From assembly GCA_964016885.1 (NCBI GenBank), contig OZ024740.1, forward strand, positions 194,804,001 through 194,868,000: 64,000 nt of DNA, read 5' to 3'. The position numbers and the translations under genes were made by a program. The notes beneath the pieces were generated by a model. That model worked only from the letters and a program-made list of their open reading frames with translations. It was not told where the DNA came from and did no database searches. Of this stretch, positions 22,332 to 63,918 are shown in pieces (the stretch's first letter is position 1; each line of letters begins with the position of its first letter). The stretch is from Eledone cirrhosa (lineage: Eukaryota).

Positions 22332-22417
<86 letters not shown>

Positions 22418-22512
22418 ATTTCAGTCCACGCTTCGCTATTTCCTTTCCACTGAATTATTTTTTAATAAGTTTCCAGAGTCCTCGCTATGCCTAGAAACTT
22501 ACATGAAAATAG

Positions 22513-22594
22513 ACTTTCCTGACGACGGAATGCTTTTCTATATGTTCTTCGGAAAATATATTTACTCCATTCCAGAAACTAATTAGTTGGAAGT
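22513..22594 (+). ncRNA. Type I hammerhead ribozyme motif
   Basis: ACUUUC-CUGACGA-c-GGAAUG...CAUUCC-a-GAAA-CUAAUUAG-UU/-GGAAGU: 6-bp stem I (one G.U), 6-bp stem II base, palindromic stem III (ACUAAUUAGU), GUU triplet; inside a ~250-bp insert bounded by TA tracts. Confidence 0.72.
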
Positions 22595-22878
22595 GATATT
22601 TTAGTAAGTAAGTCAATTTTATAAATTTTTTTATAATTTTATAATTTTCTTATCTTACGTCTCTCATATATATATATGCAACACACACACACACATATAT
22701 ATATATATATGTGCAAATATACATATATATATATATGCACACACACACACATAAAACATATAGCAGAATATACTACAAACTTTGCCTAAAAAAACAATTT
22801 GGGTAGTTACAAAGTTGATAATACATTCTAATACAGAGCTAATTAAATTGTATGTTCTGTGATGTTATATAAATAATG

Positions 22879-22954
<76 letters not shown>

Positions 22955-23527
22955 CATACATATACACAGGTGCTTACACATATATATACATACACATTCA
23001 CATTATACATTAAAAATATATGCATGCATAAATACATAAATATACACCCACATATGGTGTATATGCTTCTGTAGAGGCAAACTAACCAAATGTGTAAGGT
23101 ATTTCTTGTCGGTGATAAATATTCAATTTCTGTTTTACACTGAAATATGTGTTATAACAATTTTGATTTTAAAAAAAAATTAAATTACAAATAAAAATAT
23201 AAATTTCCTTTTATATGGTATATCATATAGATTTTTAAACATATTTTTATTTTTGGCTAGTTTGCTCTAAGCAAATTTTTACATTTTTTTCTTCTTTTCA
23301 TTTCCTGCGTGCATTGGTTGAATGGTTCTTCAAATTCGGATATTTGCATGAATTGTTGGAACTGGTGTTTTCCACTTGGATTCTCTTCCTAGATCTCCAG
23401 CCATTCGACTATAGAGTGTTTGATGTGTTATAATTTATTGAATAAATAACGTCTAATTAATCTCTATATAACTAAACAAAAATATAAATATATAAAATAA
23501 ATAAATAAATAAAATAAATAAATAAAA

Positions 23528-23586
<59 letters not shown>

Positions 23587-23990
23587 AAATATCCTTTTTT
23601 TTTACACTAGAACAGTGTTATTATGCTAGCTCCATGTTTTTTCACCTATCTGAAGGTGTGAAATACTTTAAAAAAATGTTGTTTACTGAAGCTAGTCACT
23701 AGTTAGAGAATTTCAGTAGCAAGGTGAAAAAAAAAGAAGAAATATGTTGCTTTAATAATGATTTCCTTTAAATAGACACAAAGCCAATTTCTCACATGAA
23801 GAACTATATGATTGATAAGTCACTTCTATATCACTAATGTAGCACTGTTTAACCATTTGAAGAGAAAAAGCCTACTTATCCTTCTACAATGAAGAAAATT
23901 GTACCATTTTTAAGTGATAAGAGGAAAAAAGGTATTAGTATCTGAATTTTAAAAAATATATATCTAAGTATAATAAACAGAGATACATAT

Positions 23991-24633
23991 ATCATCATCA
24001 TCATCATCATCATCGTTTAACGTCCGTGTTCCACGCTTGCATGGGTTTGGACGGGGGTTTTCCCACTTGAGGCAAGAGTGATTATCTTGCTCGCATAGGA
24101 CTATCTGGCGGGTTTTCTACAGCTGGATGCCCTTCCTAACACCAACCACATTTACAGTGTGGGGCTGGGAGGTTTTTACGGTGTTGCCTACACGGCCACA
24201 TTACAGCATGAACTGTGTGTTTTTTTGATGTGACATCTATACGATCTCATTTGTTTCGGCCTGGATGTTGTGGCACCAACATAACTTTACATTGAAAGGG
24301 GTGGTGTGGATGGAGTGGGGGTGGTGGGACGGGGGTGTATTTTGTTAGAGATGCCTACTGATTGTAGTAGGTTTTACTTTGTATTTAGGTAAGGCGGGTC
24401 TTCTCTATTACTGAGTACCGCCAAAGGTCTCGGTCCAGTGACATTGTCTTGGTGAGGTGTAAGTGTGTGAGGTCGGAATTTATCAGCTCGTCCCAGGTTT
24501 TTCTGGGTCTGCCTATTCCGTAGCTACCGTCTATCTTTATTGCCCTGCACTTTGTTATACAGCTATCGTCCTTCATGCGCATCACGTGACCATACCAACG
24601 TAGCCTTCTCTCGAGTAAACAACATCTGATCCC
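23991..24633 (-). mobile_element. 5'-truncated RTE LINE
   Basis: ORF 24385-24666 C-terminus, 3'UTR, (GAT)n tail; head-to-tail with the long copy across a TA tract. Confidence 0.92.
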
Positions 24634-24650
24634 ATATATATATATATATA

Positions 24651-27600
24651 TCATTATCATCATCATTTAACATCTATCTTCCACGCTAGCATGGGTTTAG
24701 ACGGGAATTGCCCCACGTGAGGCAAGATTGGTTGTCTTGCTCGTATAGGACTGTGGGGACTGGGAGGTTTTTACCGTGTTACCTACACGGCCACATTACA
24801 GCGTGGACTGTGTGTTTTTTTGTCGTGAGACCTACACGACCTCATTTATTTAGGACTGGATGTTGTGGCACCAACATAACTTTACAGAGAAAGGGGTGGT
24901 GTAGATGGGGGTGGGGGTAGTGGTAGTGGGATGGAGGTGTATTTTTGGTTAGGAGGTGCCTACTGACTGTAGGTTTCGCTTTGTACTTAGGTAAGGCGGG
25001 TCTTCTGTATTACTGCGTAGCACCAAAGATCTCGGTCCCGTGACATTGTCTTAGAGAGGTGTAAGTGTGTAAGGTCGGAATTTATCAAATCGTCCCAGGC
25101 TTTTCTGGGTCTGCTTATTCCGTAGCTTCCATATATTTTGATCGCCCTGCACTTTTTTATACAGCTGTCGTCTTTCATGCGCATCACGTGACCATACCAA
25201 CGTAGTCTTCTCTCAAGTAAACAGCATCTGAGCCCTCTTATTCCTAATTTCTCACTTAGTTCATTTATGCTTTGCCATTCACGTATATTACTATTACACA
25301 TCCAACGGAGCATGCAAGCTTCATTCCTCTCCAGTCTGCGTAGATCCTCTGCACACAATGCCCATGTCTCACTGCCATGTAACATTGCTGTTTGTATGCA
25401 GGCATCATACAGTCTGCCTTTCATTTTTAGGGAGAACCATTTAGCAGTTAATAGTGGTATAAGCTCTCTGAACTTTTTCCATCCCGTTCTGACTCTAGCT
25501 ACTGTACTTTCAGGGCACCCTCCACCACTGCTGATTTTGTCACCCAGGTAACGGAAGGTGTCCACTATTTCTATAGAACGATCTGGGCAATGGAAGGAGC
25601 TAGTATCCTGTGGGCACTTGCTACTACTTATTGCACCTGAGCACCGGCCAAATATTAAATATATGTTCTTAGTTAGTTTACCTGTGATCCCACTACATCT
25701 TTTATGCACCTATACTTTGCATTTGGGACATATAATGGAGTTTCTGCCTACTCCTTTCCTACACACTGAGCATGGCCATTTCCCAGAGGGGACCAGTGCC
25801 CTATTTTCCTTCCTGCATACTAGAACTTTAGTCTTAAAGAAGTTAATTTTAAGGTCTTTTGATTCTAGGCCATGCTTCCAAGTTTGGAATTTCTTCTCTA
25901 GTTCAGCCATTGATTCAGCTATGAGCGTTAGATCATCTGCGTATAGAAGTTCCCATGGGCAGCCGGTCTTGAACTCCTCTGTTATAGCCTGAAGGGCAAT
26001 AATAAATAGGAGGGGGCTAAGGACAGAGCCCTGATGAACACCGACTTTTACGCTAAATTCTTCACTATATTCGTTGTTAATTCTAACCTTGCTGACTGTT
26101 TCTTTATACATGGCTTGTATAGCTCACACAAGCCATTCATCAACACCTAGTTTTCTAAGAGCCCACCAGATAATGGAGCAGGGGACTCTGTCAAAGGCTT
26201 TCTCCAAGTCAACAAAAGCTAAGTATAGGGGTTTACCTTTAGCTAGGAACTTCTCCTGTAGTTGTCGTACAAGGAAAAGAGCGTCTGTGGTACTTTTACC
26301 TGACACAAATCTAAACTGCATTTCATCTAGATCAATTCGCTCTCTGATTAGTTGCGCTATAACTTTTTCTGTGACCTTCATGACCTGGTCAATTAATTTA
26401 ATGCCTCTATAGTTTCCTCTATCTAGGGCATCTCCTTTACCCTTGTAGCAGTTAATGATGATACTGCTACGCCAGTCATTTTGTATGACCCCATTCTGTA
26501 TGACTTGGTTTACTATCCGGGAGACCATAGTGTGTCCCACCGATCCAGATGCTTTCAGCATTTCAGCAACTATCTCCGAAGGCCCAGCTGCTTTGCCTGT
26601 CTTCATATCTTTGATTGCCTTACTTATTATACTACCTTCAACTTGCACTGCTGGTCCCTCTATTGGATCGATTTGGGGCATCTTTTTCTCACTTATTCTC
26701 CTCATTTAGTAGCTTCTTATAGTGACACTTCCAAACTACCTTCTTATCAGTATCAGTGATGGCAAGTATACCATCATCATTACGGACACACTTCTCCCCG
26801 ACAATATCACGGTTTTCCTTGACACATTGTCTAGCAATCCTGAACACCTCACGTCTTTGGTCCTCGCGTTGTAGAACATGCCTGAACTTTCTTTCCTCTG
26901 CTTCCCTTCTTGCAAGGTACACTTGTCTCCTAGCTTCTCTCCTGGCCACTTGATAGTGTTCTCTACTTCCCCCATCCTGCCATACTTTCCAAGCTTGCTT
27001 TTTGGCCTTGATTGATTCCACCTTACTGTTCCACCACCAAGTTACTCTCCTCCTGCCTATAGGTCTGCTCCAGCCACAGACTTCTTCTGTCGCCTTCAGC
27101 AGGTTAACTTTCAGGAATTCCCACTGTTCCTCTATACTGTACATCTCTAATTGCTCTTCCTTACTGTCAAAAGCATCAAGTAGCATGCTTTTAAATTTGT
27201 TACGGGCTGTGGGGTTCTTTAACTTCCATATTCTTCTTCTCAGGGTGGTCCTCCTCCTGTTGTCGAGTTCGTTTCATCCTGATTATGAGGTCACTAACTA
27301 TGAGGCCATGTTGGGAGGTGCATTCTTTGCGGGGGAGGGATTTAGTGTTTACAACGGACACTTTGTCACGTCTTCTGGTAAGGATATAATCTATCTGACT
27401 GGCGTGTTCCCCTGATCCATAGGTGATCAAGTGATTGTCTCGTTTTTTGAAGTTTGTGTTGCAGATAGTTAGGTTATTTGCGTCACAGAATTCTGAAGCC
27501 TTCCTCATTTCTGGTACCAAACCCGTAGCCTCCATGGATTCCGTCATAGCCATCACAATGTTGTCCAACATGACCATTTAGGTCGCCAGCAATAATTATG

Positions 27601-27850
27601 TAGTCACTGTCAGTTAGTTGGGAGGTAGTGAGCATTAGCGACTCATAGAATCTGTCTTTTATAATGCCAGGCAGTCCAGATTGGGGTGCGTAAGCGGATA
27701 TTATTGTCACAGTAGTTCTATTTAGGACAAGTCTTATTTTGATTATTCTGTCATTGACTCTATTTACGTCAATTACCTTATCTACCCATTTTTCTGCTAA
27801 CATAATTCCTACTCCACCCAGCCCATTTTCATTTTCCACCCAGAAAAGTT
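24651..27850 (-). mobile_element. Near full-length RTE-clade LINE (APE endonuclease, RT, PHD-like finger), 5'-truncated and disrupted
   Basis: APE motifs (SAYAPQ, GDLNGHVG, QIDYIL), RT motifs (AFVDLEKAFDRV, GVHQGSVLSPLLF, LLYADD), C-terminal RRLRWYGHV..GRPRKTW, 3'UTR and (GAT)n tail; split by stops/frameshifts across ORFs 27932-24987. Confidence 0.95.
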
Positions 27851-28509
27851 TATATATATATATATACATACATATATACCATATATACATATATATATCA
27901 TCATCATTTAATGTCATTTTCCCTGCTAGCACTGGTTGGACAGGTCTTCACAGACTGAGCCTGTACTGAAGCAGACCTAAATGCTGTTACATCTGTCCTC
28001 CCCATACTTAATTTAACCTGTTCACATTGGTAGGCGAGTTTTCTAATGTAAACATACAGGTTGTGCTTATTTGTGGTAACAAGGACATTTATAAACTAAA
28101 TAAAGTACTTGCTACTTCATAAATTTGTTAATTTATTTAAGCTATAGTTTACAGGTTTATGAAACTATTTAAATAAACATTATTTCTTCAGAATTAATCA
28201 AGTTGGTAAAAGTAGATTTTTAAATTATGGTTTAAATAAATTGACACACACACCCATGTATTTTTGAAGATATCTTCTTTATAGCACAAGCAGATTAACC
28301 TAGTCATCTTAGTACAACTAATGATCCCAATCCAGGGTGATGAAAGAAAACCAGAATGAACTCTAGCAAGATTTTACAGTATTATTTACACCATCTACTT
28401 CTGACAGTGAAAGTATTAACTCTTTCATTATTAAGCAGTTGTTTGAAAACATAACTTAACAAAGTGAGAAAACTTTATTCCAAATACTACTGTCATAAAC
28501 AAAACGTAA

Positions 28510-34560: not shown

Positions 34561-34735
34561 TATAACTATATATACACTGGTTTAAGAAGAAGGGAGGTGT
34601 GATTTGGCAGAGTTATTAAAGCCTAACTGATATTTGTTCTAGCTTATATTGGTCTGAGTTCAAATTCTGCCAAGGTCAACTTTGCCTCTCATCCTTTTGA
34701 AGTTAATAAACCAAGTATCACTCTAGTGCTGGTGT

Positions 34736-34785
<50 letters not shown>

Positions 34786-34878
34786 CTGTCTCTCTTTCAC
34801 TCACTCTCTCACCAGCTCTGGTAAAAATCAGCTGTGTTCTAACCAGAGCTGGTGAGAGAGTGAGTGAAAGAGAGACAG

Positions 34879-34912
<34 letters not shown>

Positions 34913-35087
34913 ACACCAACACTAGATTGATACTTGGTTTATTAACTTCAAAAGGATGAGAGGTAAAGTTGACCTTGGCAGAATTTGAACTCAGACCAAT
35001 ATAAGCTAGAACAAATATCAGTTAGGCTTTAATAACTCTGCCAAATCACACCTCCCTTCTTCTTAAACCAGTGTATATATAGTTATA
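34561..35087. repeat. Fold-back inverted duplication (~250-bp arms, ~18-nt spacer) of an old SINE plus (CT)n tract
   Basis: Arms are reverse complements with about 3 substitutions and a different (CT)/(AG) length; spacer AAAAATCAGCTGTGTTCT. Confidence 0.95.
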
Positions 35088-38850: not shown

Positions 38851-41111
38851 ATAAGGTGTGGGTTGTGAATTTTGCAGTGATTATTGTCCTACCAGCTATC
38901 CAGTCAAACAACCAGTTTAGTATGAAATGTTCTAATTTTTGTTTTATTTAATTGTTTGTTTTTTTTCTATAACTTGTTTTCTGTCTTTTTTCTATAAAAT
39001 GTTTCTTCTTTTTTTCTCTTTATATACCAGAGAGAAAGAGAGTGGTGGAGGAGAAACTATAGCTAGGAGAGATTTTTTTTTCTATAGTTTTCTATATTTT
39101 AAAATTCTTTTTATTGGAGATAAGGAAAAATGGTTCAGAAGTTTGCTTTGCAACCACATGGTTTTCTTTTCAGTTTTTCTAGTGTGGCACCTTGGATAAA
39201 TATCTTCTACATCCTTGAGCTGACCAATATATTTTGAATAAAATTTTGTCACCAAAAACTGGGCTGAAACCTCAAGAAACTGAACCTCACAAGAGAGATA
39301 TCACAGAACTGAGCAGAGTAGAAATATGCAATAATAGAAAAGACCTACCCTCATGTACTGCACAAAAGTAAATATAGTGAGTAAACAGAAGCTACAGTGA
39401 TGGAAATGAAATGGACACAGTATAGGGTTTGAGCAGATCATTCAGTCAATATGAGCATGTAATAACCTAGCTAGTTTTGGTGCAGTGATGAAATGTACTC
39501 AAAATACTCTATAAGGTGGTTGGCATAGAGGCCATGCCAAAAATCTAAGGTATGAGCAAGACAGATTGATCTGACCTGCCTGGTGTTAGACTGTGACAAA
39601 CTATTCCAGAATTAGGGAACCTTTTCATGTTGAAAGGTCATATTAAGTTATTTGTGATGTAATAAGGCTACATTCAAGAAACCATAATTATATATTCTTA
39701 AAATTGACATTAAATTGACTATTTATTCACAGTTGTATAAATGACATCACAAATTGTTTATAATTCTTACAGAATGAAAATATATACACAAATAATATAT
39801 AAAATTAATTATTGCTAAATTTAATACGCAAAAATATATAATCAAAGCTAGAGAAAAAAACATCAATTCAACACTAAGTATGTCAAATGGTCACACACCA
39901 AGCCAACACACTCACGACATTACTGCAGGTGATAGCGAGGCTAAGGTGCTGAAACAACCAAGCACTTTCACATACATCACATGACATGACACCTCAGTAA
40001 GGCGAGCCACTAATGATTCAAGAACTTTGCTGTAAGCAGATTTTATTCCTTTCGGCTACAGAAACAGTGACCCTCACATTTACCGCGGCATCCAGGATGT
40101 GCGACATTATTTTCTTTGCCTTTCATCCTTACGGGGTCGATAAAATAAAGTACCAGTAATGCACTGGGTAATTGCTGGCCTTGTGCCTAAAGTAGAAACA
40201 ATTATTTTGGAAGAATCTAATTACTATGTACTAATTATCTAAAAAACGAAAAAAAAATTAATTTTAAAGCTAACAACCTTGTACATTCCAGAATGGGATT
40301 AGAAGTAAAAGATGACTCTAGAGCTGATTGGGCCCTAATAATCTGCTAATTTTTCTCTGACTTATTTCTGACCTATTTAATCCATGCCAGCATAAAACGT
40401 GGATGTAAAGTGATGTTGATATATACACACACACAGGTGCATATGTGTGTGTGTTTGTCACCATTCTATGTTTACGTTGATGCCATTCATTAAAACAGCT
40501 CTCTTTGTTTATGTCCTGTAACTTAGCAGTTCAACAAATAGAGATCAATAACAAAAGTATTGGTTTTGATATGATCAACTGAAACTCTTTCTGGTGGTGC
40601 CCCAGGATAGCCATGGTTCAATGACTGAAACCAGTAATAAAATAAAAGACTATGAGAGGTGGTTATGTAGGAATTAAAGTTAGAAAAGGTAATTTTTATT
40701 GGTTTAATTTAATATTTCTTATACATTAGGCTGGTGGATCATCAGTATTGGTAGAATGCCAGACAACATACTTTGTGGCACAGAGTTAGGTCCCTTTACA
40801 TTCAGAGTTTAAATTCAGCTGAGGTTAGCTATGCCTTTCATCCTTATGGTGTTAATAAAATAAAATACCAGTTATGCACTGATTTAATCAACTTCCACCT
40901 CCCCGAAAATTGTTGGCCATGTGTCTAAATGAGAAACCAATATTTCTTATACATGAGAAAGAAGGTGGATTAAGAAGATTTATGTCCAGGGAAGATCATT
41001 TTTATTAGTTTGTTGTTTTTTATTCATTAATTTTATATAATCTTCATTTTTATTTCTTTTTTTTTCTGAATGAGAGGCAAAGATGATCATACTACTACTA
41101 CTATTACTACG

Positions 41112-42066: not shown

Positions 42067-42804
42067 CTAATACTTTCTTTGTTTTTCTTTTATTTGTGAG
42101 GGGGGGGATTAATTGCTTAAAAGCTCCTGGTTTCAGCAGCAACTGAACCAAGGACATTAACAAACAACAACAGCAGAGTTATAGATATTTCAAACAAGGG
42201 AAAGGGGGGGGGGGGGTTATTTTCATCATCATCATCATCATCATCCTTATCAATATCATTACTGTTGTTATCTCCATAACCACCAGCAGTGCCATCATAA
42301 TCATCGTCAAGAACAACTTCAACATCATCACTATAGATGTTATTACAATCATTACAACTATCACTGCCACCACTGCCACCATCATGATAATTATCATCAT
42401 CATCACCATCACCTCCATCATAATCAACATCATCACCTCCATCATAATCAACATTATCATCACCTCCATCATAATCATCATCATCATCACTATTGCCTCC
42501 ATCATAATCAACATCATCATCACCATCACTATCACCATCACCTCCATCATAATCATCATCATCATCACTATAGTTATCATCACCACAATCACCACAGCCA
42601 ACTCCATCACCACAAACCACAATATTGTTTTCATTATGATCACCACCAACACCATCATCACAACCACCAACTCTATCATATTCATCACCATCATTACTGT
42701 GACTTTCCTACCCCAACACCACCACCACAACAACATCACAATCCCCACCAGCACCATCAACATCATAATGGTTATCCCCACCACCATCACTACCACCATC
42801 ACTA

Positions 42805-43880
42805 CATCATCACTGTAGCTATCCCCCACCACCACATCATCACTGTAGCTATCCCCCACCACCACATCATCACTGTAGCTATCCCCCACCACCACATCAT
42901 CACTGTAGCTATCCCCACCACCACATCATCACTGTAGCTATCCCCCACCACCACATCATCACTGTAGGTATCCTCCACCACCACATCATCACTGTAGCTA
43001 TCCCCCACCATCACTACCACCACCACCACATCATCACTGTAGCTATCCCCCACCACCACATCATCACTGTAGCTATCCCCCACCACCACATCATCACTGT
43101 AGCTATCCCCCACCACCACATCATCACTGTAGCTATCCCCCACCACCACATCATCACTGTAGGTATCCCCCACCACCACATCATCACTGTAGATATCCCC
43201 ACCATCACATCATCACTGTAGCTATCCCCCACCACCACATCATCACTGTAGATATCCCCCACCATCACATCATCACTGTAGCTATCCTCCACCATCACAT
43301 CATCACTGTAGCTATCCTCCACCACCACATCATCACTGTAGCTATCCCCCACCACCACATCATCACTGTAGCTATCCTCCACCACCACATCATCACTGTA
43401 GCTATCCCCCACCATCACATCATCACTAGCTATCCCCCACCACCACATCATCACTGTAGATATCCCCCACCACCACATCATCACTGTAGTTATCCTCCAC
43501 CATCACATCATCACTGTAGCTATCCCCCACCACCACATCATCACTGTAGCTATCCCCCACCACCACATCATCACTGTAGCTATCCCCCACCACCACATCA
43601 TCACTGTAGATATCCCCCACCACGGCATCATCACTGTAGCTATGCCCCACCATCACATCATCACTGTAGCTATCCTCCACCACCACATCATCACTGTAGC
43701 TATCCTCCACCACCACATCATCACTGTAGCTATCCCCCACCACCACATCATCACTGTAGCTATCCCCCACCACCACATCATCACTGTAGCTATCCTCCAC
43801 CATCACATCATCACTGTAGCTATCCCCCACCACCGCATCATCACTGTAGCTATCCCCTGCCACCACATTATCATTGTAGT
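42805..43880. repeat. 30-bp minisatellite, ~35 copies
   Basis: Unit CATCATCACTGTAGCTATCCCCCACCACCA with recurrent variants; embedded in decayed (CAT/CAC)n at 42220-44290. Confidence 0.97.
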
Positions 43881-44918
43881 TATCACCACCATCACTACCA
43901 ATATCACCACCATCATCATCACTGTAGCTATCCCCCTCCATCACCATCATCACTGTAGATATCCCCACCAGTACAACAATCATCAACATCATCACTGTAG
44001 TTATCCCCCTCCATCACCATCACTACAAATACTACCATCAGCATCACTACCAATACCACCATCATCACTATAGTTATCTCCACCATCACCACCACAACGA
44101 CCACCACTATCACCACCAACACCATTAACACCATCACAACCACCATCACCACCAACAGCACCACCACCACCACCAACAGCACCACCACCAACACCATCAC
44201 AACCACCACCATCACCACCACTGCAGCCATCACCACCACCGCAGCCATCACCACCACAACCATTACCACCAACACCAACACCATCACAACTAACACTATC
44301 CAAATGTTTCTTGGCTTCACTACTATATAATCATTTTTAGGCATGCACGCCCAAACACACACACACACACACACAAAGTGGTCAACTATTTACAAAGGTG
44401 TAGTTCAGGATTTTGAAAGGATAAACATATTGGGTTTGTATTTCTCCAATTAACAGATTGCTGTTAAGTACACAAACGTAATCTACAAACTGATCGGTTT
44501 GTCGCTTCTGAGAGTTTTTATTTGCATATTATTAATTACATTTCCAGCCTACAATGCCACTACTGCCACTACAGTCATCACTGCCACTACAGCCATCACC
44601 ACCAACTACCACCAACACCACTACTACATAACTCAACCACCATTATCCAATCATAGATAACATTCTAACTTTCATTAAGTGATTACCTGCATGTAGGAGT
44701 TAATGTCCACATTCTGTTGATGTTCTTCTCTAACACTTTATATTTCAAAACACATTTATTACATACATGTACATATATATAATTCCTTTTTTTGTGTGTG
44801 TGTGTGTGTGTGTACATGTGTAATATTCTTTATTATGGCTAAGTGATGGGCCATGTTACTCTGGATTTTCATCTATGTACTCACAGGATCATCAAACAAG
44901 ACTCATATAATATACATA

Positions 44919-45458: not shown

Positions 45459-45667
45459 CAACACATATTAAAAGTTTAAGCAAACAATTTAAGCATCATA
45501 TTGATACCCTGTGGTATGCAGACCAGTCTGATTACATTACAACTTGGAAAGTAAACTACAATGAGTGCTCAATCCTGTCTATACATTGGTTAGGTTGATC
45601 AATGAGTACAACTTGAAAACCAACAACGGATTAATGAACACAATATATAGAATATATATATAGAGAG

Positions 45668-46735
45668 ATTTTATATGTGGCCGGTGCTCAGGTGCAATAA
45701 GTAGCAGCAAGTGCCCACAGAATACTAGCTCACTCCATTGCACAGATGGTTCTATAGAAATAGTGGATACCTTCCGTTACCTGGGTGACAAAATCACCAG
45801 TGGTGGAGGGTGCTCTGAAAGTACGGTAGCTAGAATCAGAATGGGATGGAAAAAGTTCAGAGAGCTTATACCACTATTAGCCGCTAAAGGGTTCTCTCTG
45901 AAAATGAAAGGCAGGCTGTATGATGCCTGCATACGAACAGCAATGTTGCATGGCAGTGAGACCTGGGCATTGTGTGTAGAGGATATACACAGACTGGAGA
46001 GGAACAAAGCTTGCATGCTCCGCTGGATGTGTAATAGTAATATACGTGAACGGCAAAGCATAAATGAACTAAGGGAGAAATTAGGAATAAGAGGAATCAG
46101 ATGCTGTTTACTCGAGAGAAGGCTACGTTGGTATGGTCACGTGATGCGCATGAAAGACGACAGCTGTAAAAAAAAGTGCAGGGCGATAAAAATAGATGGT
46201 AGCCACGGAGTAGGCAGACCCAGAAAAACCTGGGACGACTTGATAAATTCCGACCTCACACACTTACACCTCTCCAAGACAATGTCACTGGACCGAGATC
46301 TTTGGCGCTACACAGTAATAGAGAAGACCCGCCTTACCTAAATACAAAGTAAAACCTACTACAGTCAGTAGGCACCTCTAACAAAATACACACCCGTCCC
46401 ACTACCCTCACCCCATCCACACCACCCCTTTCAATGTAAAGTTATGTTGGTACCACAACATCCACGCCAAAACAAATGAGGTCGTGTAGGTGTCACGACA
46501 AAAAAAACACACAATCCACGCTGAAATGTGGCCGTGTAGATAACACGGTAAAAACCTCCCAGTCCACACTGTAAACGTGGTTGGTGTTAGGAAGGGCATC
46601 CAGCTGTAGAAAACATGCCAGACAGTCCTATGCGAGCAAGACAACCAATCTTGCCTCAAGTGGGAAAATTACCGTCCAAACCCATGCAAGCGTGGAAAAT
46701 GGACGTTAAACGATGATGATGATGATGATGATGAT
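45668..46735 (+). mobile_element. 5'-truncated RTE LINE
   Basis: ORF 45763-46341 FRYLG..HGSETW..GRPRKTW; 3'UTR; (GAT)n tail. Confidence 0.93.
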
Positions 46736-48239: not shown

Positions 48240-49070
48240 ATCATCATCATCATCATCATCATCATCATCGTTTAACGTCCATATTCCATGCTTGCATGGG
48301 TTTGGACGGGAGTTTTCCCACTTGAGGCAAGAGTGGTTGTCTTGCTCGCATAGGACTGTCTGGCGGGTTTTCTACGGCTGGATGCCCTTCCTAACACCAA
48401 CTACATTTACAGTGTGGAACTGGGAGGTTTTTACCGTGTTACCTACACGGCCACATTTCAGCGTGGACTGTGTTTTTTTGTCGTGACACCTACACGACCT
48501 CATTTGTTTCGGCCTGGATGTTGTGGTACCAACATAACTTTACATTGAAAGGGGCGGTGTAGATGGGGTGAGGGTAGTGGGACGGGTGTGTATTTTGTTA
48601 GAGGTGCCTACTGACTGTAGTAGGTTTTACTTTGTATTTAGGTAAGGGGGGTCTTCTCTATTACTGTGTAGCGCCAAAGATCTCGGTCCAGTGACATTGT
48701 CTTGGAGAGGTGTAAGTGTGTGAGGTCGGAATTTATCTGGTCGTCCCAGGTTTTTCTGGGTCTGCCTACTCCGTGGCTACCGTCTATTTTTATTGCCCTG
48801 CACTTTGTTATACAGCTGTCGTCTTTCATGCGCATCACGTGACCATACCAACGTAGCCTTCTCTCGAGTAAACAACATCTGATCCCTCTTATTTCTAATT
48901 TTTCCCTTAGTTCGTTTATGCTTTGCCGTTCACGTATATTACTATTACACATCCAGCGGAGCATGCAAGCTTCGTTCCTCTCTAGTCTGCGTATATCCTC
49001 TGCACAAAATAACCCATGCTAGCGTGGAAGATGGATGTTAAACGAAGATGATGATGATGATGATGATGAT
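48240..49070 (-). mobile_element. 5'-truncated RTE LINE (-) fused to a second, inverted RTE 3' tail (+, 49011-49070)
   Basis: (CAT)n at left end, ORF 48638-48964, then AACCCATGCTAGCGTGGAAGATGGATGTTAAACG and (GAT)n at right end. Confidence 0.9.
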
Positions 49071-49084
49071 ATATATATATATAT

Positions 49085-49320
49085 ATTAAAATATCAGATT
49101 AAAGTTTAAGCAAAGTATCGCTGCTTTCACCCTTAACTGGATCTTCTGAAACTTGTTTTTTTTTAGTTTCAGAAGATCCCGTTAAGGGTGAAAGCAGCGA
49201 TTCTTTGCTTAAACTTTAATCTGTTATTTTGATAAATATATATATATATATATATATATTTATCCTTATCGAACCCTCTTTCGATTTTAATCTTCACATT
49301 TATTATTATTACTATATATA
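49085..49320. mobile_element. Fold-back copy of the same TA-targeting element
   Basis: ~70-bp arms around a T-rich loop (49085-49235), followed by the family tail TTTATCCTTATCGA..CCCTCTTT..ATTTT..TCTTCA; tail-only copy at 58215-58310. Confidence 0.8.
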
Positions 49321-49328: not shown

Positions 49329-49778
49329 ATCATCATCATCATCACCGTTTTACATTCGTTCCTCCATGATAACATGGGTTAGACAGGTTGTCCTGCTGTG
49401 GGCAGTGTCCAGTCGGCTGACCTTGTCTTACTCATACGGGAACTGATTCTAGCTTGATTTCTACAGCTGGATGCCCTTCCTAACACCAACCTCATTTACA
49501 GTGAGTGCTGGGTGCTTTTTTTTTTTCCGTGTCACCTACACGTTCACTTTACAGTGTGGGCTGCATGCTTTTTTGCCGTGGCACCTCCATGGCCACTTTG
49601 TAGTGGAAAAATAGGGACCCCAGTCCTATCATCTCATTTCTACTGCTGAGTAAACTGGAACAATGTGAAATAAAGTGTCTTGCTCAAGGAAACAACACAT
49701 CACCCGGTCCGAGAATTGAACTCACAACCTTTCGATTGCAAGCCCAATGCTCTAACCACTAAGCCATGCGCCTTCACA
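49329..49778 (-). mobile_element. tRNA-derived SINE with RTE-derived 3' tail
   Basis: A box TGGCTTAGTGG, B box GAGTTCAATTC, central CCTTGAGCAAGACACTT domain, then ~270 bp matching the 3'UTR of the 11055/30791 LINE subfamily and (GAT)n. Confidence 0.85.
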
Positions 49779-49859: not shown

Positions 49860-50127
49860 GTATGATAACACACAAACACACACACAAACATATACACACG
49901 TGCACACATATAGCTCTATATACAAAAGGGTTTCTTTCCATTTCAGATAGCCGTGCTCCATCATCAACTTTTCTAGAAAGGTATATTATACACAAAACAC
50001 TAGCATTAACAGTTTTCCAAGAGATGGCAATATCAATGGACCTGTTATTTTTCTTGAAAAATATTTTTCCGATTCCACCCTAACCATTCCCCTCAATCTT
50101 TCTATTTCTTCTTTAATTTCTCATTCT

Positions 50128-50165
50128 TTCTTTTGATGAAGGACTGGTATCCGAAACGTTAACAC
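50128..50165 (+). ncRNA. Degenerate minimal hammerhead in a Penelope-like 3' end/pLTR remnant
   Basis: UUGAUGA-a-GGA-cuggua-UCC-GAAA-CGUU; stem I only 2 bp. More decayed relatives at ~22200 (+) and ~59175-59210 (-) share the downstream TCAAGC(G/A)TTAAACTAATATA tail. Confidence 0.5.
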
Positions 50166-50337
50166 CCTTTTCCTGCTATTTCAAGCGTTAAACTAATATA
50201 TTCCTTCAATGTACTGTGCTGTTTATTTTATTATTTCTGTTTACCTTTTACATACATATATATATATAAATCAGTTTGAAACTGGTTAGACCATTACTCA
50301 ACATAGTACTTGATACTTGGGGTAGTAGAGTATGGTT

Positions 50338-50462
50338 ATATTATAAAGAGTCAGGACCCCAACGGCTGAGCTCTTGCCATTTTAACAGCCAGTTCCAGAC
50401 ACTGGAACTGTCTGTTGAAATGGCTGGAGCTAAGCCATCCAGGCCCTAACTCATTATAAAAT
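50338..50462. repeat. Decayed ~125-bp hairpin (fold-back/MITE-like)
   Basis: GCCATTTTAACAGCCAGTTCCAG-ACA-CTGGAACTGTCTGTTGAAATGGC core, with imperfect pairing extending to both ends; abuts a TA tract. Confidence 0.7.
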
Positions 50463-51138: not shown

Positions 51139-52717
51139 ATTATCTGGTGGGCTCTTAGAAAACTAGGTGTTGATGAATGGCTTGTGAGAGCTATAGCCAT
51201 GTATAAAGAAACAGTCAGCAAGGTTAGAATTAACAACGAATATAGTGAAGAGTTTAGCGTAAAAGTTGGTGTTCATCAGGGCTCTGTTCTTAGCCCCCTA
51301 CTATTTATGATTGCCCTTCAGGCTATAACAGTGGAGTTCAAGACCGGCTGCCCATGGGAACTCCTATACGCAGATGATCTAACGCTCATAGCTGAATCAA
51401 TGGCCGAGCTAGAGAAGAAATTCCAAACATGGAAGCACGGCCTAGAATCAAAAGGCCTTAAAATTAACCTGGCTAAGACTAAAGTTCTAGTTTGTAGGAA
51501 AGAAAATAAGGCGCCGGTCCCTTCTGGGAAATGGCCATGCACAGTGTGTAGGAAAGGCGTAGGTAGAAACTCCATTTTATGTCCCAAATGCAAAGTATGG
51601 GTGCATAAAAGATGTAGTCGGATCACAGGTAAGCTAACTAAGAACATAGATTTTACATGTGGCCGGTGCTCTGGTACAATAAGTAGCAGCAAGTGCCCAC
51701 AAAATACCAGCTCTTTCAATTGCGCAGAGGGTTCTATAGAAATAGTAGACAGCTTCTGTTACCTGGGTGAAAAAATCAGCAGTGGGGGAGGGTGCTCTGA
51801 AAGTACAGTAGCTAGAGTCAGAACTGGATGGAAAAAGTTCAGAGAGCTTATACCACTATTAGCCGCTAAAGGGTTCTGCCTAAAAATGAAAAGCAGGCTG
51901 TATGATGCCTGCATACGAACAGCAATGTTGCATGGCAGTGAGACCTGGGCATTGTGTGCAGAGGATATACGCAGACTAGAGAGGAACGAAGCTTGCATGC
52001 TCCGCTGGATGTGTAATAGTAATATACGTGAACGGCAAAGCATAAACGAACTAAGGGAAAAATTAGAAATAAGAGGGATCAGATGTTTACTCGAGAGAAG
52101 GCTACGTTGGTATGATCACGTGATGTGCATGAAAGACGACAGCTGTATAAAAAAGTGCAGGGCAATAAAGATAGACGGTAGCCACAGAGTAGGCAGACCC
52201 AGAAAAACCTGGGACGACCAGATAAATTCCGACCTCACACACTTACACCTCTCCAAGACAATGTCACTGGACCGAGATCTTTGGCGGTACTCAGTAGCAG
52301 AGAAGACCCGCCTTACCTAAATACAAAGTAAAACCTACTACAGTCAGTAGGCATCTCTAACAAAATACACCCCCGTCCCACCACCCCCACCCCATCCACA
52401 CCACCCCTTTCAATGTAAAGTTATGTTGGTGCCACAACATCCAGGCCGAAACAAATGAGATCGTGTAGGTGACACAACAAAAAAACACACAGTCCACGCT
52501 GTAATGTGGCCGTGTAGGCAACACGGTAAAAACCTCCCAGTCCCACACTGTAAATGTGGTTGGTGTTAGGAAGGGCATCCAGCTGTAGAAAACCCGCCAG
52601 ACAGTCCTATGCGAGCAAGACAACCACTCTTGCCTCAAGTGGGAAAACTCCCGTCCAAACCCATGCAAGCGTGGAACATGGACGTTAAACGATGATGATG
52701 ATGATGATGATGATGAT
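51139..52717 (+). mobile_element. Young 5'-truncated RTE LINE with open RT C-half
   Basis: ORF 51094-52320 open from IIWWALRKLG through YADD and the Cys/His finger to the native stop; full 3'UTR; (GAT)n tail; TA tracts at both ends. Confidence 0.95.
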
Positions 52718-56232: not shown

Positions 56233-58333
56233 CCATTTAAACATAATATGTTGGCTTATAAATGGGGTTTGGATTTTTTATCATTTCTCTGACATAAAAT
56301 AGGGACTCCACTTATATTCAAGTATATACTGTACTTCCCATCATCCTAAAATGGAAAGACATGCTTGGTAATGCAATCCTAGAAGTTTAAAGAAAATATG
56401 ACTATGACAGGAGTGTAATGATTGGAATGTCAGTTCAGCTGTATGTTTATAAAACATTATCGACAATACAGAACACTACTGAACAAAAATTATTTGAATA
56501 ACATTGTTTAATATACATGTTCATCTTGGTTTTAGAATACCATGTGTAACCTAGTTCTGGAAACCAATCCAATCTAAGACCTTCTCACACTTTTGGAGGA
56601 ACACTTCCCTGGTTGACGTTCACTGCATTCTGCTTGGGTTTGGTGATGTCAGGAGTGTAGCCATACTCACCACGCTTGGTTAATTGCTGGTTGGTGAGGC
56701 TATTTAACCCATAGTTGGGAAAAGGTATACAAAATACCTGTATGTTCTAAGAGTGACTAAAAAAGTTGGAAGAGCATCCAACAATAAATCACTGTCTCCA
56801 GAAGTCATGTCCAACCCATGCTAGCACAAAAAGAAGACTTAAAACTATGATGATAATGATGTTTATGACAATGATGACAACAATGATGATGATTCGTCTA
56901 AAAATGTTATCATTCAGTCTAGCTATTTATTTCCAACACCTAACAACCAATATTAAAATTCTTCAGCTATTATACATCTGTCAATTTCCTTTAACAACAT
57001 GAAACTGAACATATTAACATATGTTACCTAGCTATCAAGAATAGGTATCACATCAAATAGGAAGGATACATGTGACAGAGCACTAACCAATTCACAACAA
57101 ATACAAGTTCTCACCCCTCCAGACGTTCTTGGTATTCCAGAAGGCATTAGCATTTACATTACATTTTAATTGATAGAAAGCTTCTGGTGGTCACCCAATC
57201 AAACACTTTCGAATTTTGATTGGTACATTTACATTTTTACACCTATATCTTCTACTCCATATCCCACCACCACCACCCCCACCACTACTACTAATACCAT
57301 CACTACTATTACTACTACTACCACCACCACCAGCACTACTATTACTACTACTACTATTACTAATACAACTCCAACTACAAATGGAAAATAAATTTACAAA
57401 CCAAAGCAATAAAATGAATCCTGTTTTTTTTTCATGTTATTTTATTATATATTTGGAGGCTGAATACGTATGAAGAGCTAAAAGACAAAAGATAATTAAG
57501 TCAGAAGTTAATTCAAGTATGAGAAGAGAAAAAGATAAAATGAGGAAGGAAGGAGCTCATTGTAAAATAAAACAAATCAAAGCTCCACCAAAAAACGACA
57601 ATCTAACACTCTTAGGAAATAAACTATATTATGTAAATCAATGAATGAGGCAAGGGAAAAATGGAAGAAAATTTATGGGAAATAAATATTGATTAGAATT
57701 AAGTTTAGGTTCAGGGATTAGTGTTAGGGTTGGGGTTTGGGTTAGGTTTAAGTTTTGAATTACACATTCTAGAGCTCATGAATTTATAGCAGGGAGAAAG
57801 TTAATAATAAGAAGAAAAAGGATAGCCTGAATTCAATTTTCTTAGCTTCATTTATAGTTTCAGTACATTAACTAACAAGAGTATACGAACATAGTGACAA
57901 ACGAATACCATGCATACATGTACATAGCTATAAATATATATATATATATGTATATAGGGCTGTGAATAGAGTTATTACAGTATAAGATTAAATGCCATGC
58001 CGTATTTATTCCTGCTCTTTGCATTCTGCTTTCAAATTCTACTGAGATCAACATTGCCTTTCATCTGTTTGGGGTTTAATAAATAAAGTACTAGCCTGAG
58101 ATATTGAATTAGCAGAATTGTGATTATATATACACAGTCACACATACACATATATATATATATGTAAGTATGCATACGTACATACATACACACATGCACA
58201 TATATATATATATATTTATTTGCTCTACGGTTCTTATATATTTGATATATATTTATCCTTATCGAGCCCTCTTTGGATTTTAGTCTTCAAATTTATTATT
58301 ATTACTATATATATATATATATATATACTCACA

Positions 58334-58860
58334 GAATAGGCAGACCCAGAAAAACCTGAGACGACCTGATAAATTCCGACCTCACACACTTACACCTCTC
58401 CAAGACAATGTCACTGGACCGAGATCTTTGGCGGTACTCAGTAATAGAGAAGACCCGCCTTACCTAAATACAAAGTAAAAAAAACCTACTACAGTCAGTA
58501 GGCATCTCTAACAAAATACACACCCGTCCCACCACCCCCACCCCATCCACACCTCCCCTTTCAATGTAAAGTTATGTTGGTGCCACAACATCCAGGCCGA
58601 AACAAATGAGATCGTGTAGGTGTCACAACAAAAAAACACACAGTCCACGCTGTAATGTGGCCGTGTAGGCAACACGGTAAAAACCTCCCAGTCCCACACT
58701 GTAAATGTGGTTGGTGTTAGGAAGGGTATCCAGCTGTAGAAAACCCGCCAGACAGTCCTATGCGAGCAAGACAACCACTCTTGCCTCAAGTGGGAAAACT
58801 CCCGTCCAAACCCATGCAAGCGTGGAACATGGACGTTAAACGATGATGATGATGATGATT
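58334..58860 (+). mobile_element. 5'-truncated RTE LINE
   Basis: Near-identical to 52190-52717. Confidence 0.92.
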
Positions 58861-59461
58861 ATGACTCACACACATATATACATATGTAAGTATGCATACG
58901 TACATACATACACACACGCATATATATATATATATATATACTCACACACATATATATATACACATATGTACATATGGATTATATCAAATATTATTATTAT
59001 TAATGTTACATATGTGTATGTATATGTGTGTGTGTGCATATGCATACTTATATTTATGTATCAACTGTGCTAGAGCAAGAAATAAAATTCTAATTTATAT
59101 ATATATATATATATGTATATGAGAAATCAATGATGATATATATTAGTTTAATGCTTGATATAGTAAGAAATAGAGTTTAACATTTCTGACATTAGTTTTT
59201 CACCAGAAGATAGATTGACATATGGAAGAAGAAATAGGATAGAAAAGACAAAACAAAAGAGATTTTTTTACATGAGGAAAGTATGTGTGAGTGTGTCTGA
59301 AGGTGACCAAAATTGCTGGTACCAGAAGTGTGTCCAGCTATAGAATATTGCTGCAAAAAAGGATTCGCTGATGAATATTAAGCCTATCACAGAGCCTGTA
59401 AGTCTAGCTTCTGCTTTAGTTGAGAAAATGGCTTGAAAACATTTGATGTATATATCTATGT

Positions 59462-59796
59462 ATCATCATCATTTTACGTCCGCTTTTCCCTGCTTGCAAG
59501 GGTGGGACGGGAACTGATTTTGGCTCGATTTCTACAGCTGGATGCCCTTCCTGACACCAACCTCATTTACAGTGAGTGCTGGGTGCTTTTTTGCCGTGGC
59601 ACCTACATGTCCACTTTACAGTGGAATGATGGGGACCCCAGTCCCTATCATCTCATTTCTACAGCTGAGTAAACTGGAGCAATGTGAAATAAAGTGTCCT
59701 GCTCAAGGAAACAACACATCACTCGGTCTGAGAATTGAACTCACAACCTTTCGATTGCAAGGCCAATGCTCTAACCACTAAGCCATGTGCCTTCAC
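59462..59796 (-). mobile_element. tRNA-derived SINE with shortened RTE tail
   Basis: Same head and junction (GATAGGACTGGGGTCCC) as 49329-49778. The head also occurs at ~19095-19215 (+) and ~37395-37675 (+) with other tails. Confidence 0.85.
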
Positions 59797-59810
59797 TATT
59801 ATATATATAT

Positions 59811-60329
59811 AAAAGAAATGAGATTTCGCTTCAAGCATAGCTTTATACAAATATGTAGAGAAATTTTGTATTTCTAAAGAAACACGGTTTTAGGAAGCCA
59901 TAGCTATGCAAACACCGGGGCTAACGCCCTCTGGTGGTGTCCAGCAGAGGCAAGGGGGACAACTGTCTATGCATTTCAGGCTTGACTGGCCTTCATCAGG
60001 ATGGTCCCTCCCAATGCTTGCACTTGCTGGACTTGAAAACAGTCGAGAATATATAGTTTTCTCATCTGTGTAAATGAGGTGATTAATCTCATTTGCATAT
60101 GAAGCTGCATAAGTTGGCCAGCCCCAATGTTTGCATAGCTACGGCTTCCTAAAACCGTGTCTCTTTAGAAGTACGAAATTTCTATACATATTTGTATAAA
60201 GCCATGCTTGAGGTGAAATCTTATTCCTTTTCTATTATAAGTTGAGCCAACTTATGCAGCTTAGTATGCAAATGAGATTAATCACCTCATTTACACAGAC
60301 GATATATTCTTGACTGTTTTCAAGTCCAG
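59811..60329. mobile_element. Interleaved inverted-repeat element A-B-A'-B' carrying a hammerhead
   Basis: A 59811-59922 pairs with A' 60120-60231; B 60027-60118 pairs with B' 60246-60329; starts at a TA tract and is fused to an RTE fragment on the right. Confidence 0.75.
59955..60009 (-). ncRNA. Type I hammerhead ribozyme motif, partly decayed
   Basis: GGGACCAUC-CUGAUGA-AGGC-cagucaa-GCCU-GAAA-UGCA-UA/-GACAGUUGUCCC. The two stem I mismatches are each explained by CG>CA decay of an ACCGUC/GACGGU helix. Confidence 0.68.
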
Positions 60330-60331
60330 GG

Positions 60332-60784
60332 TTATACGATGCCTGTATGAGATGCACGATACTGCATGGTAGTGAGACATGGGCAGCAACTGCAGATGAT
60401 ATGCGAGAAATGAAGCAAGCATGCTCCGTTGGATGTGCAATGTCAATGTGCGTGAACGACCAAGCATAGATGTGTTGAGAGAGAAACTGGGTATAAGAGG
60501 GATAAGCTGTGGTGTGCAGGAGGAAAGACTGAGATGGTATAGACATGTGATGCGCATGGAGGATGACCTCTGAGTAAAGAAGTGCCAAGAAATCCCAGTA
60601 GAAGGAAGACACAGTAGAGGAAGACCACCAAAAACATGGGCGGGGTGGGGAGAGCAGACCTCAGATCGCTGAAACTCAGGGAGGAGATGACGAAGGACCG
60701 TGACAAGTAGAGAGATGCTGTGCTGAATAAGACCCATCCCATCCTTGCAAGCAGGGAAAAGAGGGAGTAAAATGATGATGATGA
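60332..60784 (+). mobile_element. RTE LINE 3' fragment (divergent subfamily, short 3'UTR)
   Basis: LYDAC..LHGSETW..RLRWY..GRPPKTW homology with frameshifts; tail CTTGCAAGCAGGGAAAAG..(GAT)n. Confidence 0.85.
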
Positions 60785-60893
60785 TATATATATATATATA
60801 TATATACGCATTTCAAAAACAAATATCATCATATCATTATATATATATATATATGCATACATATATATATATGCATACATATATATATATATA

Positions 60894-60954
<61 letters not shown>

Positions 60955-60970
60955 TTACATATATATATAT

Positions 60971-61015
<45 letters not shown>

Positions 61016-61812: not shown

Positions 61813-61817
61813 ACATA

Positions 61818-61884
<67 letters not shown>

Positions 61885-62094
61885 GATAACAAGTTATCGT
61901 CATAGGTAATCCAGTTAGAGGTTGTGAGTACTCTGCGTCATGGATAGTTTTAACATACGGCTTTGTTTGACTCAACAAAATGCTTCCATCGTTATGCAGC
62001 GAGTTTGCAGTAATTTCTATGCAGGTTATACTTGGAGTAATAATAGTTAAAGTTATCTTTAACTATATATATATTTATAGATATATATAAATAC

Positions 62095-63046
62095 ATCATC
62101 ATCATCATCATCATCAACGTTTAACGTCCGTGTTCCATGCTTGCATGGGTTTGGACGGGGGTAGTCCCACTTGAGGCAAGAGTGATTGTCTTGCTCGCAT
62201 AGGACTGTCTGGCAGGTTTTCTACAGTTGGATGCCCTTCCTAACACCAACCACATTTACAGTGTGGGTCTGGGAGGTTTTTACCGTGTTGCCTACACGGC
62301 CACATTACAGCGTGGACTGTGTGTTTTTTTGTCGTGACACCTACACGATCTCATTTGTTTCGGCCTCGATGGCGCGGCACCAACATAACTTTACATAGAA
62401 CGGGGTGGTGTGGATCGGGTGGGGGTGGTGGTGGTGGGACGGGGTGTATTTTGTTAGAGATGCCTACTGGCTGGAGTAGGTTTTACTATATATTTAGGTA
62501 AGGCGGGTCTTCTCTGTTACTGAGTACCGCCAAAGGTCTCGGTCCAGTGACATTGTCTTGGAGAGGTGTAAGTGTGTGATGTCGGAGTTTATCAGCTCGT
62601 CCCAGGTTTTTCTAGGTCTGCCTATTCCGTGACTACCATCTATCTTTATTGCCCTGCACTTTGTTATACAGCTATCGACTTTCATGCGCATCACGTGTCC
62701 ATACCAACGTAGCCTTCTCTCGAGTAAACAACATCTGATCCCTCTTATCTCTAATTTTTTTCCTTAGTTCGTTTATGCTTTGCCGTTCACGTATATTACT
62801 GTTACACATCCAGCGGAGCATGCAAGCTTCGTTTCTCTCTAGTCTGCGTATATCCTCTGCACACAATGCCCAGGTCTCACTGCCATGCAGCATTGCTGTT
62901 CGTATGCAGGCATCGTACAACCTGCCTTTCATTTTTAGTGAGAACCCTTTAGCAGCTAATAGTGGTATAAGCTCTCTGAACTTTTTCCAACCAGTTCTGA
63001 CTCTAGCTACAGTACTTTCAGAGCACCCTCCCCCACTGCTGATTTT
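62095..63046 (-). mobile_element. 5'-truncated RTE LINE
   Basis: ORFs 62672-62932 and 62494-62694, 3'UTR, (GAT)n tail. Confidence 0.93.
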
Positions 63047-63216
63047 ACATATATATATATACTTAGATACATACGTATATATATACTTAGATCATATGTA
63101 TATATATATATATATATATACTTAGATACATATGTATATATATATCTATATACTTATATATATATATATACTTAGATACATATGTATATATATATATATA
63201 TATACTTAGATCATAC

Positions 63217-63264
<48 letters not shown>

Positions 63265-63304
63265 GTATGATCTAAGTATATATATATATATAAGTATATA
63301 TATG

Positions 63305-63368
<64 letters not shown>

Positions 63369-63419
63369 CATATATATACATATAATATAAGATCAAAAGA
63401 TGGTTAAAGGAGTTCCATA

Positions 63420-63490
63420 TATTTTATTATGCGCATTTCAAAAACAAACATCATCAAACAATAATATTTGCGTTTTCATCAGATAAAACA
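63420..63490 (-). ncRNA. Type I hammerhead ribozyme motif (left arm of palindrome)
   Basis: Exact reverse complement of 63695-63765. Confidence 0.8.
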
Positions 63491-63694
63491 GGAGAACATG
63501 ATATGAAGGCTAAAAAACACTTGTTGATAGTGCAGTTTTAAATCAACATATGAAAAGTGGTTTTAGATTGATGTGTGATATTGGGAAAAATATATTTTTC
63601 CCAATATCACACATCAATCTAAAACCACTTTTCATATGTTGATTTAAAACTGCACTATCAACAAGTGTTTTTTAGCCTTCATATCATGTTCTCC

Positions 63695-63765
63695 TGTTTT
63701 ATCTGATGAAAACGCAAATATTATTGTTTGATGATGTTTGTTTTTGAAATGCGCATAATAAAATA
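63695..63765 (+). ncRNA. Type I hammerhead ribozyme motif (right arm of palindrome)
   Basis: UGUUUUAU-CUGAUGA-[~16-bp stem II with G.U pairs and one mismatch, GUUU loop]-GAAA-UGCGCA-UA/-AUAAAAUA: 8-bp stem I, palindromic stem III (AUGCGCAU), AUA cleavage triplet. Confidence 0.8.
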
Positions 63766-63918
63766 TATGGAACTCCTTTAACCATCTTTTGATCTTATAT
63801 TATGCATACTCCAGTCCCACAAACTGTAGAGTGCTTCTTATCCGATATCTGCATTGCTTTATTGTACTACAATAAAACTCACCTCCTACATATATATACA
63901 TATATATATATATATATA

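Follow-up and report, generated by a model that had tools for sequence, protein, structure and literature searches.

The question raised by a 64,000-nucleotide stretch of the Eledone cirrhosa genome (assembly GCA_964016885.1, contig OZ024740.1, positions 194,804,001 to 194,868,000 of the forward strand; hereafter the window) is what the short hammerhead-bearing inserts beside its TA microsatellites are, and which enzyme put them there. The window is AT-rich animal DNA, crowded with microsatellites, pieces of an RTE-type long interspersed nuclear element (LINE) and short repeats. Five families of type I hammerheads, A to E, were found in it. We consider it probable that the enzyme of a Penelope-like element (PLE) inserted all five, A, B, D and E being heavily 5'-truncated 3' ends of PLEs and C a retrozyme of the kind without long terminal repeats (non-LTR retrozyme). 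An earlier sequence-only reading of the same DNA had taken the whole set for non-autonomous ribozyme retroelement families; this was borne out for C, which is multicopy, non-coding, closed head-to-tail at approx. 320 nt and ends at TA; for the other four families it was not shown.

The motif descriptors used in the search were adjusted over three scripts, at a time when the sites were already known, and the shuffle figures are therefore generous. The bare core occurred 12 times in the window versus 7.6 ± 2.8 times in shuffled sequence, and since 23 of the 200 block shuffles reached 12, it was not enriched. The core combined with stem II and a palindromic stem III was found at 4 loci (0.02 in shuffles, none of the 200 reaching it), and the full three-stem type I fold with intact core at 3 loci, once in A and twice in D, where 0.04 was expected and none of 100 shuffles reached this count. 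The expectation that the motifs would outnumber those of shuffled sequence was right for the complete folds and wrong for the bare core. E came in when the core was allowed one change and the base of stem II a mismatch. Cores and stems were located at the proposed sites of A, B, C and D, and the minimum of four distinct hammerhead contexts rose to five with E added. The type I core boxes with stems I-III in order were present in A and D, and in C when the family-majority letters were used; E has one core change and the individual B copies fail. The short palindromic stem III that had been ascribed to all sites was seen in A (10 nt), C (6 nt) and D (8 nt), while the newly added E has a 5-bp hairpin there. 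These palindromes are predicted to pair between two copies with -9.0 (A), -4.7 (C) and -10.5 kcal/mol (D), and the active folds predicted under constraint for A, C, D and both E arms lay 1.3-3.4 kcal/mol above the unconstrained ones. Hits at 5560+, 15428+, 21803+, 27951- (an RTE 3' end), 42229-/42232- and 49967- were rejected as hammerheads, since only relaxed descriptors found them and these match shuffled sequence too; 49967- was also dropped as a relative of B, as its alignment with B ends at the core.

No hammerhead model of Rfam was among the 150 of 152 window matches listed, nor in local scans of C and D; the matches listed in these scans were to microRNA and small nucleolar RNA models, driven by microsatellites. 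No Pfam family rose above the cut-off among the 179 filtered open reading frames (ORFs) of at least 55 aa lying outside the RTE copies of the window, in agreement with the earlier statement that the inserts have no convincing ORF. In the control of the Pfam scan, 2 of 5 added LINE ORFs gave RVT_1.

Family C occupies 59812..60118 on the minus strand and represents 307 of the approx. 320 nt of one retrozyme-like unit, built of the segments P-H-Q, with its 3' end at the TA tract 59800-59811. Its hammerhead (59963..60004, minus strand; core 59999-59993, predicted cut after 59968) has a 4-bp stem II, a 6-nt palindromic stem III and a long interrupted helix continuing stem I. In the window copy stem I is eroded to 2 proximal pairs, versus 5 pairs in most aligned reads from the same organism. 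An inverted partial copy, approx. 88% alike, follows on the plus strand (60120..60329), running Q' then P' until an RTE fragment cuts it at 60330; within it a head-to-tail junction was seen at about 60232-60245. The unit is non-coding, with stops in all three sense frames and no Pfam match over its approx. 320 nt, and has 42% GC. The window's unit is predicted to fold much better than its shuffled versions (z = -3.76; none of 100 shuffles folded as well).

Reads were aligned to 59797-60340 at 80% likeness in 4 of the 21 listed sequencing runs (X1, X4, X5 and X19), 14 runs with a share below 0.2 being left unused. X5 is from another organism, and X19 consists of raw reads of another sample under the same species label. 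The alignment gave 4168 contigs in X1, 42 in X4, 207 in X5 and 1873 raw reads in X19, depth being no copy number. Family C is thus multicopy: its contigs in this organism number in the thousands, and the second organism has relatives of it (the 207 contigs of X5). By X1 depth, the letters that restore stem I pairing were carried by 129,470 of 131,633 at 59964 and by 4,455 of 5,273 at 60002. At least four contigs (three of X1, one of X4) run from the start of the unit at 60116-60118 back to 59807-59823, at least four others bridge the junction at 60240 in the inverted copy (two of X4, one of them at depth 133, and two of X5), and the segments are bridged in the order Q-H-P by contigs among those listed. 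Since contigs join the end of the unit to its start and bridge its segments in order, the unit closes head-to-tail at about 313-321 nt (approx. 320 nt). Many ends of C join TA: at least 34 X1 contigs and at least three groups of X19 reads (186, 189 and 90 reads) have 8-12 nt of TA before unrelated DNA, and two of these three groups are single loci as judged by the agreement of their reads. At this 3' junction the unit's own letters nearly match TA repeats. Since the family is multicopy, pairs its stem I in most reads, joins TA at its ends and closes head-to-tail, it works like an animal non-LTR retrozyme, and it is likely one that borrows PLE enzymes for its movement.

Segment P (60027-60118 on the minus strand and 60246-60329 on the plus strand) was the most deeply covered part of C in the second organism. 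A hairpin arm of this segment holds an octamer motif that occurs 10 times in the window; a promoter role for it is a lead only. According to a review, retrozymes seem to lack promoters.

The inserts share their neighbourhood. All nine motifs, which belong to seven independent inserts, are followed downstream by a (TA)5+ tract at 22-157 bp from the predicted cut; at 150 bp such a tract has a base rate of 0.11. Within 160 bp, a cut-off picked once the distances were known, the tract lay downstream in 7 of 7 independent inserts and upstream in 1 of 7, so that the adjacency is one-sided. When the seven sites were shifted jointly, none of 63,600 shifts reached 6 of 7, and local shifts reached 7 once in 100,000. 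As the control we used the short repeat that is most common in the window (at 15025-15223 and some 25 further places) and has no TA preference; of its 26 hits, 3 had a tract within 100 bp. The claim that the inserts adjoin TA/CA tracts therefore stands, with the correction that the right arm of D ends 84 bp before its TA/CA tract. In A, B, D and E the predicted cut lies 22-143 bp before the TA tract, that is, near the 3' end (for B by inference from its decayed copies). Single tracts are common to different families, namely to B2 and A, B4 and E, RTE and E, and RTE and a D fragment.

Family A has a single copy in the window, an insert of 251 bp on the plus strand (22415..22665) with a TA tract at either side. 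Its hammerhead (22513..22594, plus strand) is a complete type I fold with the core at 22519-22525, GAAA at 22575, a 6-bp stem I, a long stem II and the 10-nt palindromic stem III; the predicted cut is after 22588. The GAAA at 22552 is nearer, but a fold that uses it lacks stem I and was discarded. Family D is a perfect tail-out palindrome of 422 bp (63382..63803) whose two 211-bp halves are 100% identical, each arm holding one complete fold (63695-63765 on the plus and 63490-63420 on the minus strand) with an 8-bp stem I, a long stem II and the 8-nt palindromic stem III. The 84 bp between its right arm and the next TA/CA tract (63804-63886) are either flank or a one-sided tail of the PLE type, for which 30-40 bp have been published, a length that this stretch exceeds. 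A further D fragment of 37 bp (60806..60842, minus strand) lies inside a TA tract, its 3' end merging with TA at the predicted cut site.

Family B consists of decayed minimal hammerheads, 78-83% alike over 101-149 bp and starting at differing points. In B1 (50102..50254, plus strand) the core at 50133 has one change and the 3' end passes into TA; in B2 (22182..22329, plus strand) the core has two changes and the 3' end lies at the CA/TA tract preceding A; in B3 (59128..59237, minus strand) the core has one change, and a shortened 3' part is followed by TA. Every copy carries one or two core changes and pairs stem I at no more than 2 positions, so that these decayed copies make B a putative hammerhead only. 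A possible B-related 3' fragment, B4 (11978..12045, plus strand), ends in TA and is a weak match (72% over 85 bp, E-value 0.23). A and B2 have a 6-nt motif in common near their 3' ends, of which the window holds 17 occurrences. Downstream of B1, a short imperfect palindrome (50341-50459, 77%) adjoins a TA tract.

Family E is represented by a tail-out inverted pair between TA tracts (49089..49230) with a hammerhead-like fold in its arms (49170+ and 49148-). Both arms carry a U4-to-A core change; a U.U mismatch closes stem II, stem III is a 5-bp hairpin and stem I has 5-6 bp, the partner at 49148- being matched only with a 2-bp stem II. Two short E palindromes (12059-12132 and 12283-12399), which fold back inside stem III, and a long E 3' end entering TA lie in 12059..12535. 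A 3' fragment at 11949..11978 (minus strand) ends in TA, and a distal 3' fragment at 58220..58310 (plus strand), of which a similar piece lies at 49260-49312, has TA at either side. In all, E has three inverted pairs of the tail-out type besides several 3' fragments, and its pieces are of many lengths. Exact-pattern scans for B and E gave no match in metagenome and viral collections and two in bacterial genomes, which were taken as chance.

In the way they work, A, B, D and E resemble the 3' ends of PLEs, and they are likely just truncated ends of such elements; they are probably ordinary, under-annotated PLE debris. They start at most approx. 110 nt upstream of the hammerhead core, whereas the stop codon of the octopus Hydra PLE consensus, read by eye from PMC8557442, lies approx. 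130 nt upstream of it. Since the inserts start nearer to the core than this stop codon, their lack of an ORF is uninformative on autonomy. According to the same source, PLE inserts are highly 5'-truncated, often with an inverted copy, and a (TA)n preference is listed there for the Hydra and Naiad families of octopus. Truncation with tail-out inverted copies was found in D and in the three E palindromes, and none was seen for A or B. As no ORF could be linked to them, the four families are putative PLE members.

Several observations weigh against the interpretation preferred here. None of the families could be linked to a PLE ORF, and the 64-kb window, in which five families are present, contains no such ORF. 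Eleven window motifs (10-15 nt, four of them in RNA or lower-case letters) found no match in the consensus files that PMC8557442 gives for Naiad, Chlamys and Hydra; Neptune, Penelope and Nematis consensus sequences are absent from these files, and matches can be hidden by line breaks. The RTE copies are equally TA-bound, 11 of 11 hand-delimited copies having a tract at most 30 bp from one end, just as the sequence-only reading had seen the LINE in the same niche. TA on both sides of an insert without a palindrome was found only in A and two E pieces. Activity is doubtful for the B hammerhead, given its decay, and for E, given its core change. Among the listed records none covers two whole C units, and since no listed read or contig spans them, a tandem array of C is inferred from its junction. 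In X5 the pairing letter at 59964 is in the minority (25 of 151), the other stem I strand is uncovered, and 33 contigs depart into unlike sequence at 60230-60238. The joins and TA-joined ends of C were counted among the listed rows, beyond which there are 558 further loose-end rows, 48 joints and 4576 pieces, and X1 is possibly the same sample as the source of the window's assembly.

The alternative that survives best is the full extent of the earlier proposal, in which all five families are non-autonomous, retrozyme-like or similar to short interspersed nuclear elements (SINEs), and have no ORF-bearing parent. It holds for C as far as tested; A, whose 251 bp are bounded by TA at either end, is within the 170-400 nt size range of animal retrozymes (PMC7229834), and the missing PLE ORF agrees with it too. 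However, the varying starts of B and the many lengths of the E pieces are those expected from truncation, no tandem unit of A, B, D or E was found within the window, and the RNA folds of A and D do not stand out from their shuffles (z = -1.2 and -1.8), unlike that of C. We regard this alternative as unlikely.

We give a still smaller chance to the opposite reading, that every hit is a plain PLE end, C being only the terminal repeat of an autonomous PLE and its Q-to-P junction the product of stacked pseudo-long terminal repeats (pLTRs). PLEs do form partial tandems (PMC8557442), retrozymes derive from pLTRs (bioRxiv 10.64898/2026.07.22.740005), and the listed reads, none of which covers two whole units, would allow it. 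Stacked truncated copies should, however, join at variable points, whereas the closing junction of C recurs at one place in X1, X4 and X5, thus in two organisms, and its depth in X4 is 133 versus 139 for P itself. The 4-bp stem II and the long interrupted stem I of C are also those of the classical retrozyme-type motif.

The enzyme might also be that of the RTE LINE. This young family, which encodes a PHD finger behind its reverse transcriptase and ends in a (GAT)n tail, strongly prefers TA at either end, and its copies lie at 24015-27950, 45666-46711, 48270-49048, 51140-52695, 58329-58846 and 62114-63045; among the hits named as eukaryotes, its protein is closest to Octopus bimaculoides (63%), other named animals reaching 45-53%. 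RTE-clade LINEs would be expected to need a shared 3' tail. A common 3' tail followed by (GAT)n was present at 12 clear RTE-type ends, versus none of the 8 hammerhead stretches tested, which had neither a tail match nor a GAT run and so do not look like RTE-dependent SINEs. Since no hammerhead insert carries the RTE tail, a PLE enzyme is the likelier mover, and the absent tail together with the PLE-type tail-out inversions favours PLE over RTE. The possibility that the RTE LINE moves the inserts, or at least C, draws on the abundance and youth of its TA-flanked copies (up to 96% alike), on the RTE fragment joined directly to C at 60330 and on PMC7229834, which leaves LINEs open as movers; against the tail result we hold it to be very unlikely. 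Two short repeats (49345-49777 and 59463-59796), 92% alike, end in (GAT)n as RTE does.

Least probable of all is that the TA tracts mostly arose by slippage from the AT-rich 3' ends of the elements rather than being pre-existing targets, since, in spite of the one-sided adjacency and the short TA-like stretches at the junction points of C and E, A and two E pieces have TA at both ends, single tracts serve different families, and Hydra and Naiad PLEs have been reported to prefer (TA)n (PMC8557442).

If a PLE enzyme is the mover, the insertion may have proceeded as follows. The hammerhead would cut the element RNA from a longer transcript, in A, C and D as a dimer formed through the palindromic stem III, as the folds and published families suggest; for C, cleavage would free a unit-length RNA that could be ligated into a circle. 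From published PLE biology, the GIY-YIG endonuclease of the PLE would nick (TA)n and its reverse transcriptase would copy the RNA from the nick. The 3' junctions sit at AT-rich stretches of the elements that merge with the TA tract, and this suggests that the nicked TA strand may pair with the element RNA to start the copying. The inserts are mostly 100-320 nt and often folded back, as D and E (tail-out palindromes) and C (inverted second copy) show; copying would usually halt within 100-320 nt and often fold back on itself, which presumably yields such palindromes and inverted copies.

A more specific route for C can be put forward tentatively. As a retrozyme of cephalopods, it may spread in the form of circularly permuted monomers because it has a UA-rich priming stretch of its own, to which a PLE-nicked (TA)n strand would anneal as in telomerase-type priming, and the conserved segment with the octamer may give it a promoter of its own; we think this possible, but would not bet on it. 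This proposed priming stretch is next to a hairpin where the units join and lies apart from the ribozyme cut. If the proposal is true, the TA target and fold-back inversion that mark the insertion of C would count as direct genomic evidence for the mobilisation of animal retrozymes by PLE enzymes rather than LINEs.

Some further features of the window were recorded. The stretch 34561-35087 is an inverted duplication of 527 bp that carries no hammerhead. Its 234-bp arms are 96% alike and enclose a (CT)n/(GA)n pair, and its outer ends are short and TA-like; it is the source of the top Rfam microRNA matches. A 135-aa frame on the minus strand (8270-8674), a piece of which recurs at 39899-39961, has no Pfam match; we take it to resemble the restriction-like endonuclease end of the CRE/R2-type non-LTR elements. 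A 30-bp minisatellite of 36 copies (42796-43895) lies inside a wider CAT/CAC-rich region.

The closest known counterparts of A, B, D and E are the PLEs of the Hydra clade, which have canonical hammerheads near the 3' end and lie almost all in (TA)n, Hydra-1_Obim of Octopus bimaculoides included (Craig et al. 2021, PMC8557442). The type I hammerhead shortly before the 3' end, the (TA)n preference, the strong 5' truncation and the inverted copies are common to both, and the U.U-closed stem II of E is found in many Hydra rows of the table in PMC8557442. The differences are that the hammerhead of Hydra-1_Obim matches none of the five motifs, that the window inserts have no attached ORF, that stems II of A and D are unusually long and that E has its core change. 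The minimal hammerheads of animal genomes, as described by Cervera and de la Pena (2014, PMC4209133), are mostly solo, probably related to truncated PLEs, and form many dissimilar families per genome; the window agrees in its dissimilar and mostly solo families, in some close opposite-strand pairs, in the palindromic stem III and, for B, in the extra base before stem II. It differs in the longer palindromes of A and D (10 and 8 nt) and in their full-length stems I, and the parts of that paper used here do not mention TA adjacency. In O. vulgaris, 31 recently active Penelope-like families have been reported, in passages that do not mention ribozymes (PMC13282606).

Non-LTR retrozymes were defined, and PLEs proposed as their movers, in PMC7229834 (Cervera and de la Pena 2020) and in the preprint of Li, Clavereau and Pollet (2026); further sources consulted are PMC2220036, PMC10886601, PMC8969392, PMC6765202 and PMC7761336. 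The mover of animal retrozymes is so far a proposal from co-occurrence and phylogeny. A high-copy retrozyme with the same TA target and inversion signature as adjacent PLE ends makes the mover testable from genomes alone. By term counts, 'microsatellite' is absent from the main text of PMC7229834 and appears once in the 2026 preprint, on another point, and 'octopus' is absent from the preprint; titles, term counts and passages of the open-access literature gave no description of an octopus retrozyme or of a microsatellite-targeted one. The modest addition made here is a retrozyme-like family that is dispersed and TA-targeted, in an octopod-like genome. C differs from the described animal non-LTR retrozymes in that the window holds one unit and an inverted part, ending at (TA)n, and in that it is known here from DNA sequence alone. 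It agrees with them in its non-coding unit of approx. 320 nt, its GC content below 45% (42% in C), its classical type I hammerhead, its high predicted self-pairing, its thousands of contigs and its head-to-tail junction.

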